IMG/VR virus record: IMGVR_UViG_3300001525_000014
Location: 39,620 to 103,619 of that record
Reading direction: 5' to 3' (one strand)
Length of the DNA: 64,000 bases
From: a virus
Part shown: in pieces, positions 62,063-63,140 of the stretch
Numbering within the stretch: the first letter of the stretch is position 1
Layout of the letters: each line of letters begins with the position of its first letter
Notes under the pieces: generated by a model
What the model was told of the DNA's origin: nothing
The model's database searches: none
What the model saw: only the letters and a program-made list of their open reading frames with translations
Position numbers and translations under genes: made by a program

Positions 62063-62096
62063 TAATAATAGATAGTAAGACTAATAATAGATAGTA
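62063..62096 (+). repeat. Two copies of TAATAATAGATAGTA (62063-62077 and 62082-62096), the second ending on the A of the start codon
   Basis: An exact 15-nt direct repeat with a 19-nt period. Confidence 0.5.
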
Positions 62097-62491
62097 TGGA
62101 TAAAAAGAAGTGTATAATAGACAAGTATAGTACAGTATATCTTTTCGACTTGTACGTCATACTTAATCCTGACAAAACTGTAGTAGATAAGAAGTTCTCA
62201 TTCAGGGATGATGATTCTTCCATCTTAGACGACGAGTGGTCTAGATATACAGCCTACACATGTAGAGGAGCATATGACAAAGAGAACGATAAAGATTGCG
62301 AGGTTATTGTAATAAACAAACTTGAAGACGAGTTAGGTAACGTGAATACATTTTCACATGAATCATTTCATGCAGCTGTAGATATCTTAGAGGCGTGTCA
62401 TATAAAACTTACTCCTGATACAAACGAAGCGTATGCATACTTGGTAGGATACTTTACTCAGTGTGTGCAAAAAACAGCTAAGAAGGCATGA
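62096..62491 (+). CDS. Small HExxH (zincin-like) protein, 131 aa, TAG-free
   Basis: An intact ATG..TGA ORF. The motif is ...NTFSHESFHAAVDILEACHIKLTPDTNEAYAYLVGYF.... Confidence 0.7.
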   Translation: MDKKKCIIDKYSTVYLFDLYVILNPDKTVVDKKFSFRDDDSSILDDEWSRYTAYTCRGAYDKENDKDCEVIVINKLEDELGNVNTFSHESFHAAVDILEACHIKLTPDTNEAYAYLVGYFTQCVQKTAKKA

Positions 62492-62958
62492 ACTAGATAG
62501 AAATGAGTGCTGTGCTCTATTATGCAGACTTTTTATCTCTGCAATACTAGGATAAACCTTGTACAGAGCAATGTAAATACTTCTTCGTACACGGATTCCC
62601 TATAAACATAGCCTACATAGTAGATTAGGAACCTACATACGATGTAGAGAACCAATGGTTCTAGAAAAGTCTTAAAGAGTACAGTATGCTAAAGCATAAG
62701 TTTGGTGAAGATGGGGCTTAGAGTTTTATCAAAAACCTCTGCAATTTAGGTGTTGCAGGCTCTGTAAACGCTACATAGATGATGAAATATATACATCGCT
62801 ATGATGATTAGGCAGAGAGAAATAAGGCATTTAGAGCCTTTAAATACAATAGATCAAAGAAAAAGTATACACATTTAACACGTAACGACGATGGTGAAAT
62901 TATAGAGGAAGAGTGCTCAAAATACGTAGCCCATGCTGAGTAGAATAGCTTAGGATGA
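62488..62958 (+). CDS. Panacea/DUF4065 (SocA/GepA)-like protein, 156 aa; the TAG-densest gene in the window
   Basis: It is absent from the track. The ATG at 62488 overlaps the upstream TGA as ATGA. An alternative ATG lies at 62503. The frame was read line by line. It has 8 in-frame TAGs (62494, 62548, 62626, 62662, 62719, 62776, 62809, 62941) and a TGA stop at 62956-62958. AVLYYADFLSLQYQDKPCTEQCKYFFVHGFP matches the remembered LYYAxxxSLxxxxxPxxExxxxxxxHGP spacing. Confidence 0.55.
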
Positions 62959-63140
62959 AAACTTCCTCAAAGCAGCCAAGCTTATACAAAGGGCAGAAAA
63001 AAGGGGGATGCAGTTAGGTTTTTATGATAGACACGACGATGATGAATCCGTTTGATTTGATTTTTATGTTTTTAATTCTTCCAGGATCAGCAGTATTAAC
63101 AGCCTGGATATTATGTAATAGATATGGGAAAGATTAGTAA
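62955..63140 (+). CDS. 61-aa single-pass membrane peptide
   Basis: The ATG at 62955 overlaps the upstream TGA as ATGA. The sequence is MKTSSKQPSLYKGQKKGGCSQVFMIDTTMMNPFDLIFMFLILPGSAVLTAWILCNRYGKDQ. It has 2 in-frame TAGs (63015 and 63135) and a TAA stop at 63138-63140. Confidence 0.5.

Follow-up and report, generated by a model that had tools for sequence, protein, structure and literature searches.

A cassette of four overlapping small genes with unevenly distributed amber codons in an Oafivirinae crAss-like phage

The DNA considered here (hereafter, the window) is a stretch of 64,000 nucleotides (nt) from a virus, corresponding to positions 39,620 to 103,619 of the IMG/VR record IMGVR_UViG_3300001525_000014. 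Near its right-hand end, a rightward operon opens with a cassette of four overlapping small genes: gene 1, encoding an HExxH protein; gene 2, distinguished by its many in-frame TAG codons; a short open reading frame (ORF) termed ORF X; and a transmembrane (TM) mini-ORF (Table 1). When compared by blastn and tblastn, the region is assigned to the crAss-like phages, Suoliviridae/Oafivirinae (the ‘delta’ group), with cr7_1 and cr124_1 of the genus Burzaovirus as the closest genomes (approximately 75% identical in nucleotide sequence, with 82% for gene 2). A JGI contig of 103.6 kb encodes a protein 100% identical to that of gene 1. This gene model replaces the one proposed in a previous, sequence-only reading of the same DNA, according to which the operon opened with a trio chained by ATGA overlaps, i.e., an HExxH zincin, a Panacea-like protein and a 61-residue membrane peptide, possibly acting as a toxin-antitoxin (TA)-like module with its last two components gated by an amber suppressor.

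Table 1. Features of the cassette and its surroundings, in window coordinates
Feature	Position	Strand	Description or basis
Amber suppressor tRNA	59572-59644	-	anticodon CTA (CUA-type suppression of TAG); ARAGORN; Rfam tRNA 46 bits
tRNA-Met	59701-59774		beside the CUA suppressor
Divergent control region	61816-62095		between the leftward DUF7399/Cpn10-like operon and the rightward cassette; sequence, conservation
Hairpin GGGTTCT-N9-AGAACCC, then T-tract TTTCTCTT	61952-61974		inside the control region
14-nt direct repeat AATAATAGATAGTA	62064-62077 and 62083-62096		second copy ends on the gene 1 start codon
Gene 1	62096-62491	+	131 amino acids (aa), no TAG; HExxH...E; putative minimal gluzincin-type metallopeptidase
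Gene 2	62488-62958	+	156 codons, eight in-frame TAG; crAss-specific alpha/beta protein
ORF X	62891-63055	+	about 54 aa, +1 frame relative to gene 2, three TAG; selection, 12-genome synteny
N-terminal extension of the former ‘gene 3’ (MKTSSKQPSLYKGQKKGGCSqVF...)	62955-63041	+	29 codons, non-coding
TM mini-ORF	63042-63140	+	about 32 aa, single-pass, MNPFDLIFMFLILPGSAVLTAWILCNRYGKD then TAG-TAA; alternative starts 63024, 63039
Next operon gene	63124-63345	+	conserved N-terminus MGKISKYSNLYDKDGKL, no TAG; phrog_5647 (unknown function)

Genetic code and gene model

When the genetic code of the window is considered, ORFs of at least 100 aa cover 21.7 kb under code 11 and 55 kb once TAG is treated as a sense codon, the TAG codons line up with Gln in alignments with homologs, and a tRNA with the anticodon CTA is encoded nearby. 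TAG is a sense codon (Gln) in this phage, as the sequence-only reading had claimed. The suppressor tRNA gene sits inside a TAG-free leftward block, and the homologous tRNA carries the annotation tRNA-Gln in cr7_1, cr124_1 and cr131_1; this tRNA is needed for reading the TAG codons of gene 2 and ORF X.

Gene 1 and gene 2 share an ATGA at 62488-62491, and this 4-nt overlap is kept in five other annotated genomes (cr7_1, cr124_1, Bohxovirus, cr273_1 and Dulem virus 42). The overlap type is an ordinary one, since ATGA junctions are common in the window (eight among ORFs of at least 90 aa). A second ATGA, at 62955-62958, is likewise present in the letters, but it does not start a gene: the equivalent ATG is missing in cr7_1 and cr124_1, where TAA/TGA stops (two in cr7_1) interrupt the frame, and the comparison of 62955-63041 with cr7_1 yields 0 synonymous and 21 nonsynonymous changes. 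The 61-aa gene formerly drawn from 62955 is thereby ruled out, and the cassette consists of four overlapping small genes rather than an ATGA-coupled trio. What stands of the former third gene is its single TM span, whereas its length does not, and the reading frame from 63042 contains no TAG except in the terminal TAG-TAA tandem. The start of this TM mini-ORF is aligned with an ATG in cr7_1 and cr124_1, and relatives keep the frame open. Its beginning overlaps the end of ORF X, and its end overlaps the beginning of the next gene, which forms the downstream boundary of the cassette. The 19-residue Kyte-Doolittle mean (2.28 in the window, 2.42 in cr7_1 and 2.16 in the locus L012) indicates a hydrophobic span of TM length.

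ORF X covers the last 22 codons of gene 2. Its ATG lies inside gene 2, eight to ten codons before a conserved Cys, and a conserved motif, D/N-P-x-Y/F-I-x-A-L, follows just beyond the gene 2 stop. The frame is open with an ATG in 12/12 genomes examined, all of which carry gene 2 and ORF X together, and its comparison between the window and cr7_1 shows 10 synonymous and 11 nonsynonymous changes without stops, a selection pattern replicated in the independent pair cr130_1/cr131_1. As is the case for other overlapping small genes of phages, ORF X starts out of frame within the preceding gene and is conserved with it; it differs in the extent of the overlap (68 nt, against mostly 1-14 nt at usual phage junctions) and in that the overlap frame itself contains conserved TAG codons. 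ORF X is annotated only in cr130_1 (gp39), and gene callers working with code 11 or 15 will mis-draw the region in hundreds of Suoliviridae genomes. In one locus (L019 1201-1764, P0004), gene 2 and ORF X form a single frame encoding 187 aa, owing to a 1-nt deletion (TACGTAGCC to TACAAGCC); because this is a single contig, a real variant and an assembly error are indistinguishable.

The gene 2-ORF X pair is thus constant in these 12 genomes, and its companions are less so. In 9/13 Oafivirinae-type loci (L019 and 8/12 of those in the main survey), gene 1 immediately precedes gene 2; cr130_1 and cr131_1 have it in the same operon but about 0.5 kb further downstream, and the flanks fetched for L012 and L014 showed no gene 1. 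The TM mini-ORF occurs in 5 of 16 loci and in two unrelated forms, one in the window, cr7_1, cr124_1 and L019, the other in L012, and is always parted from gene 2 by ORF X; seven other genomes do without it. The L012 form (2052-2168) is a 38-aa TM mini-ORF (MIEFIIGICVGIGVYSLVAYLY...) placed between ORF X and an MGKISKY-type gene, so that either the position is conserved and the sequence is not, or the gene was gained independently. Three loci with distant gene 2 homologs (approximately 25-35% identity) have neither an HExxH neighbour nor ORF X nor a TM ORF. Instead, the distant homologs adjoin genes for DUF7399, a Cpn10-like protein and RNase H, the first two of which the window also has, on the far side of the divergent intergenic region. 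This linkage places gene 2 in a conserved crAss early/replication-side neighbourhood rather than in a mobile two-gene TA unit. The rightward operon moreover extends well past three genes, and PADLOC and NCBIfam scans of the cassette returned nothing. Hence, the notion of a TA-like trio did not withstand the survey, since neither the zincin nor the membrane peptide, which is not TAG-gated, accompanies gene 2 consistently.

The proteins of gene 1 and gene 2

Gene 1 is TAG-free and carries an HExxH motif, both as previously described. The motif SHESFHAAVDIL occupies residues 86-97, and H88, E89, H92, E111, A114 and Y115 are invariant in a family of 19 sequences with identities down to 18%. E111 is located 18 residues past H92, at the N-terminus of a predicted helix (110-128). 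In the AlphaFold 2 (AF2) model, with a predicted local distance difference test (pLDDT) score of 93.8, strands 7-12, 18-23, 53-61 and 66-73 are followed by helix 79-100 bearing the HExxH motif, with E111 opening helix 110-128, a predicted order that fits the gluzincin pattern. The gene is under purifying selection (45 synonymous and 37 nonsynonymous changes) and matches phrog_1365, a family of unknown function (E=3.7e-13), and nothing else came up when the three to four cassette proteins were scanned against Pfam, NCBIfam, PADLOC and PHROGs; no curated peptidase family is reached at its cutoff. Among the family, weak Pfam matches point to Peptidase_M78 (6/19, best E=0.006, below cutoff) and SprT-like proteins. 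Neither a Foldseek search against the PDB (best E=0.85; PprI/IrrE E=4.2) nor a profile search of PDB sequences gave anything significant or relevant. On the basis of the invariant residues and the model, it is plausible that gene 1 encodes a minimal gluzincin metallopeptidase. With gluzincins and the M78 (ImmA/IrrE) family it shares its small size, an HExxH that the model places on a long helix behind a beta-sheet, and an invariant Glu about 18 residues on, at the predicted start of the next helix; it differs from them in having neither an Xre/ImmR-type partner nor a significant PDB neighbour.

Gene 2 is clearly under purifying selection, with 49 synonymous and 18 nonsynonymous changes relative to cr7_1. 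Its AF2 model (pLDDT 88.3) shows six helices and five short strands; Foldseek searches against the PDB and BFVD found no neighbour, and a profile search of PDB sequences found nothing relevant. A Zn site at C29/H103/C143/H149 was considered and dropped, as these residues are not retained in the distant subgroup. In the Bohxovirus ‘endotrachealis’ sequence PV686213 (L003), the gene 2 homolog has an in-frame TAA (3289-3291), at which the annotation splits the gene in two; the position is a TAG in the window and a Gln codon in cr7_1 and cr130_1, and a pseudogene, a sequencing error or TAA read-through are all possible.

Membership of the Panacea family (PF13274/DUF4065), to which gene 2 had been ascribed on account of an N-terminal motif, is defined by the PF13274 hidden Markov model (HMM) at the gathering cutoff of 25.7 bits, as used by Kurata et al. 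(2022, PMC8832971), and 25 phage and bacterial proteins confirmed by Pfam (78-88 bits) served as a reference. The motif itself is real: the spacing YYA-x10-P-x10-HG is identical in the gene 2 family and in Panacea, the two families also align, at low hhalign stringency, over another collinear motif (G-x3-A-x2-[LM]-x4-H), and the distant gene 2 subgroup has an additional N-terminal helix resembling Panacea alpha1. In addition, PF13274 is the commonest Pfam family matched by relatives of gene 2 (17/40, best E=0.011), always below threshold, and three of ten distant relatives scanned match it at E=0.0037-0.094 (18.6, 17.8 and 14.1 bits), one of these alignments running over profile positions 2-102 of 113. 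Family membership, however, does not follow. The window protein has no Pfam match at E<=10, and none of 122 gene 2 homologs has a precomputed Pfam domain. The hhalign comparison with Panacea places 36 N-terminal columns in the expected register at E=0.63 (Prob 0.08-0.8%), and column-shuffled nulls equal the real score in 7/60 cases for the distant-subgroup profile, 8/60 for the merged profile and 49/60 for the main profile. Against the Panacea HMM, 28% of the gene 2 family score higher than the 99th percentile of shuffles. The reverse HMM search returned nothing; an intermediate-profile bridge via the distant subgroup was not significant; and a profile search of 1.84 billion representative proteins gave 88 matches at E<=0.001, comprising full-length relatives and short fragments, with no trace of the large Panacea family.

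The signature residues differ too. Panacea controls have an invariant H-G-P-V, and the GPV signature, located on strand beta2, is functionally required for neutralisation (Kurata et al. 2022, PMC8832971); the gene 2 family has instead [HY]-[GKN]-x-P-[IVM]-[NH], with P38 invariant, G36 variable and one residue inserted relative to GPV. Thus, although gene 2 resembles Panacea proteins in its LYYAD/LVYYAQ helix motif followed by a beta-hairpin and in being a phage-borne protein of about 150 aa, it fails the defining tests of the family. It also differs from Panacea in that helix 56-90 is a long insertion, in its C-terminal beta-hairpin, which bears conserved Cys/His, in the lack of a stable adjacent toxin gene and in that its family is confined to crAss-like phages and linked to DUF7399/Cpn10-like genes. 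A very remote kinship confined to the N-terminal helix and hairpin core is conceivable, but we regard it as unlikely.

Amber codons and the proposed order of expression

The TAG codons of gene 2 are codons 3, 21, 47, 59, 78, 97, 108 and 152. Their density (0.051) is the highest among 61 non-overlapping ORFs of the window, whose mean is 0.016, in agreement with the earlier count. TAG accounts for 8/11 Gln positions, against a mean share of 0.38 in late genes, and the share also exceeds this background in cr7_1 and Dulem virus 42 (6/9 each), but not in cr130_1, cr131_1, cr273_1 and the locus L011. Gene 2 carries at least one TAG in 11/12 genomes (eight in the window, six each in cr7_1, cr124_1 and Dulem virus 42, five in L013), and most neighbouring genes have none: in the window, the leftward block 58205-61815 (-), gene 1 and 63124-64000 are TAG-free, with DUF7399, the Cpn10-like protein, a GIY-YIG endonuclease and dUTPase encoded among them. 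With a first TAG at codon 3, a full-length gene 2 product is impossible without amber suppression, a need from which gene 1 is free. The earlier idea that both the antitoxin-like and the membrane components depend on suppression therefore stands for gene 2 and falls for the TM mini-protein. A homolog about 30% identical to gene 2, on an unrelated short contig (L015 598-1119), has 173 codons of which 10 are TAG, starting with codon 6; the adjoining DUF7399 and Cpn10-like genes have zero TAG.

In crAss-like phages, recoding is normally confined, in the main, to late blocks (Yutin et al. 2021, PMC7886860), and one proposal is that it postpones translation to the time when suppressors become available (Borges et al., 10.1101/2021.08.26.457843). 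The window shares with these recoded phages a CUA suppressor tRNA, TAG read as Gln and the side-by-side occurrence of TAG-free and TAG-bearing genes, and gene 2 favours TAG over CAA/CAG, as do the few ‘preferentially recoded’ families. Borges et al. list one such crAss family of unknown function, their fourth family, with which gene 2 may or may not be identical. Gene 2 differs, in turn, in lying inside a standard-code, early-type operon rather than in a late structural or lysis block, and in being translationally coupled to a TAG-free gene.

The divergent region from which the cassette might be transcribed is strongly conserved with cr7_1 and cr124_1, its short motif ATAACG being retained even in L011 and L013, and has no match to an Rfam family. 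The reading tentatively preferred here is that the cassette forms the 5' end of a rightward, standard-code, early-type operon of a TAG=Gln Oafivirinae phage, in which the products of gene 2 and ORF X are delayed or attenuated. One mRNA starting in the divergent region would carry all four genes; host ribosomes could translate gene 1, the TM peptide and the downstream genes in full from the outset, and would halt in gene 2 (at codon 3) and in ORF X (at codon 5) until enough of the CUA suppressor is present. The gene for this tRNA, 2.3 kb away, would be transcribed off the other arm of the divergent region, as part of the divergent TAG-free block. Being blocked at these codons until the suppressor builds up, gene 2 and ORF X would yield their products later than gene 1 and in smaller amounts. 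Any partnership of the products is conjectural; the gene 2 product may, for example, arrive late and bind or regulate gene 1 or a target in the host, and the cassette is most sensibly seen as an accessory or host-takeover module, not as a demonstrated Panacea TA system. If the gating is functional, coupled genes on one mRNA, one readable at once and the other only after the suppressor is made, would constitute a compact natural test case for a code switch acting as a post-transcriptional timer.

Several observations weigh against this reading. Gene 2 of L011 has no TAG, and four relatives have one TAG each, late in the gene, so that strong TAG gating is lineage-specific and not a conserved requirement; the TAG richness of gene 2 could also reflect low required expression, or drift. 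The mobility of gene 1, and its absence near distant homologs, argues against an obligate partnership with gene 2. Because neither gene 1 nor gene 2 has a significant family or fold match, their biochemical roles are guesses. Finally, a sigma-70-type scan of the control region, with a tool not built for Bacteroidota or for crAss virion-RNA polymerase promoters, called no promoter for the cassette.

Among the alternatives, it is unlikely, although the possibility has some weight, that the TAG pattern and gene order have no function, the genes being unrelated accessories and the TAG codons of gene 2 having accumulated by neutral drift in a weakly expressed, weakly constrained gene. The frequency of ATGA overlaps in the window and the inconstant adjacency of gene 1 fit such a view, as do the TAG count of gene 2, which ranges from 0 to 8 among relatives with just four positions common to the window and cr7_1, and the modest binomial enrichment (eight observed against approximately 2.5 expected) given 61 ORFs. 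Yet the purifying selection on gene 2 does not suit a weakly constrained gene, the TAG bias recurs amid TAG-free neighbours in three divergent lineages, including L015, and in two lineages a TAG lies at codons 3-6, the place where it blocks translation most effectively. Quite improbable, in our view, is the expression of gene 2 and ORF X as one protein through programmed +1 ribosomal frameshifting towards the 3' end of gene 2. The conservation of ORF X does start right at the gene 2 stop in the window, cr7_1, cr130_1 and L014, the nucleotide sequence of the overlap shows unusual conservation, none of the 12 genomes has one of the pair without the other, and L019 encodes the exact fusion; this fusion, though, is known from a single contig and could be an assembly error, the in-frame ATG of ORF X is kept in all 12 genomes, no conserved slippery or shift-prone site was seen, and the distance between the gene 2 stop and the ORF X motif differs among lineages by more than 30 codons. 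A frameshift is therefore less likely than an independent start of ORF X.

Improbable as well is the idea that gene 2 is a highly divergent PanA/SocA-type antitoxin directed against the gene 1 zincin or the membrane peptide, in a recoding-gated TA, exclusion or anti-defence module. Besides the recurrent PF13274 matches, the shared motif spacing and the alpha1-like helix, it could invoke the order of elements in the gene 2 model (helix, beta-hairpin, helices, small strand), which is compatible with the Panacea fold as published (a central helix, five further helices and a sheet of three strands; PMC8832971), and the existence of PanA systems with small membrane toxins. Set against these are scores that stay below the gathering cutoff (including those of the ten sequences scanned from the 88 matches) or within shuffled nulls, a G-x-P in place of GPV, the empty Foldseek and PADLOC results, a TM peptide present in few lineages and separated by ORF X, and a gene 1 that is movable or absent. 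A more specific version, for which the prospects are poorer still, holds that gene 2 is a divergent Panacea-type neutraliser, perhaps acting with ORF X, which is held back by its early amber codons so that the gene 1 zincin acts briefly unopposed and is then switched off. If true, the phage would encode a toxin/antidote timer whose clock is the genetic-code switch itself. Apart from these possibilities, the corrected model has four genes, among them a newly described, conserved ORF that overlaps gene 2; gene 1 is plausibly an orphan zincin, and gene 2 exemplifies recoding-dependent translation of a single gene in a standard-code operon.

Neighbouring tRNA genes and other parts of the window

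Adjoining the tRNA-Met and the CUA suppressor, a third tRNA-like element (59936-60009, -) was missed by ARAGORN and scores 38.4 bits against the Rfam tRNA family, above the gathering score. The Rfam scan of 58-64 kb revealed no ribozyme or cis-element other than tRNAs, and in particular no theta/HDV-like ribozyme beside the suppressor. On its other side, the suppressor is directly adjoined by a GIY-YIG homing endonuclease gene (58768-59553, -; Pfam E=9e-12), and the pair ‘homing endonuclease | tRNA-Gln’ is annotated in the same layout in cr131_1, cr6_1 and cr56_1.

Two long genes of the late block, 41915-43450 (-) and 37692-38822 (-), are free of TAG and encode Gln almost solely by CAG (TAG/CAA/CAG = 0/2/16 and 0/0/11, respectively), consistent with very highly expressed genes shunning the recoded codon. 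Finally, stop-to-stop ORFs of at least 100 aa cover only 44-50% of positions 1-12900 under code 11, TAG-sense or TGA-sense translation, as opposed to 99% of positions 12901-58200 under TAG-sense. Parts of this first segment match the DprA-like and helicase genes of cr130_1 and cr124_1 at 68-79%, which suggests either fragmented or intron-interrupted genes, or the regions with ‘short ORFs of both polarities’ of Yutin et al. (PMC7886860).

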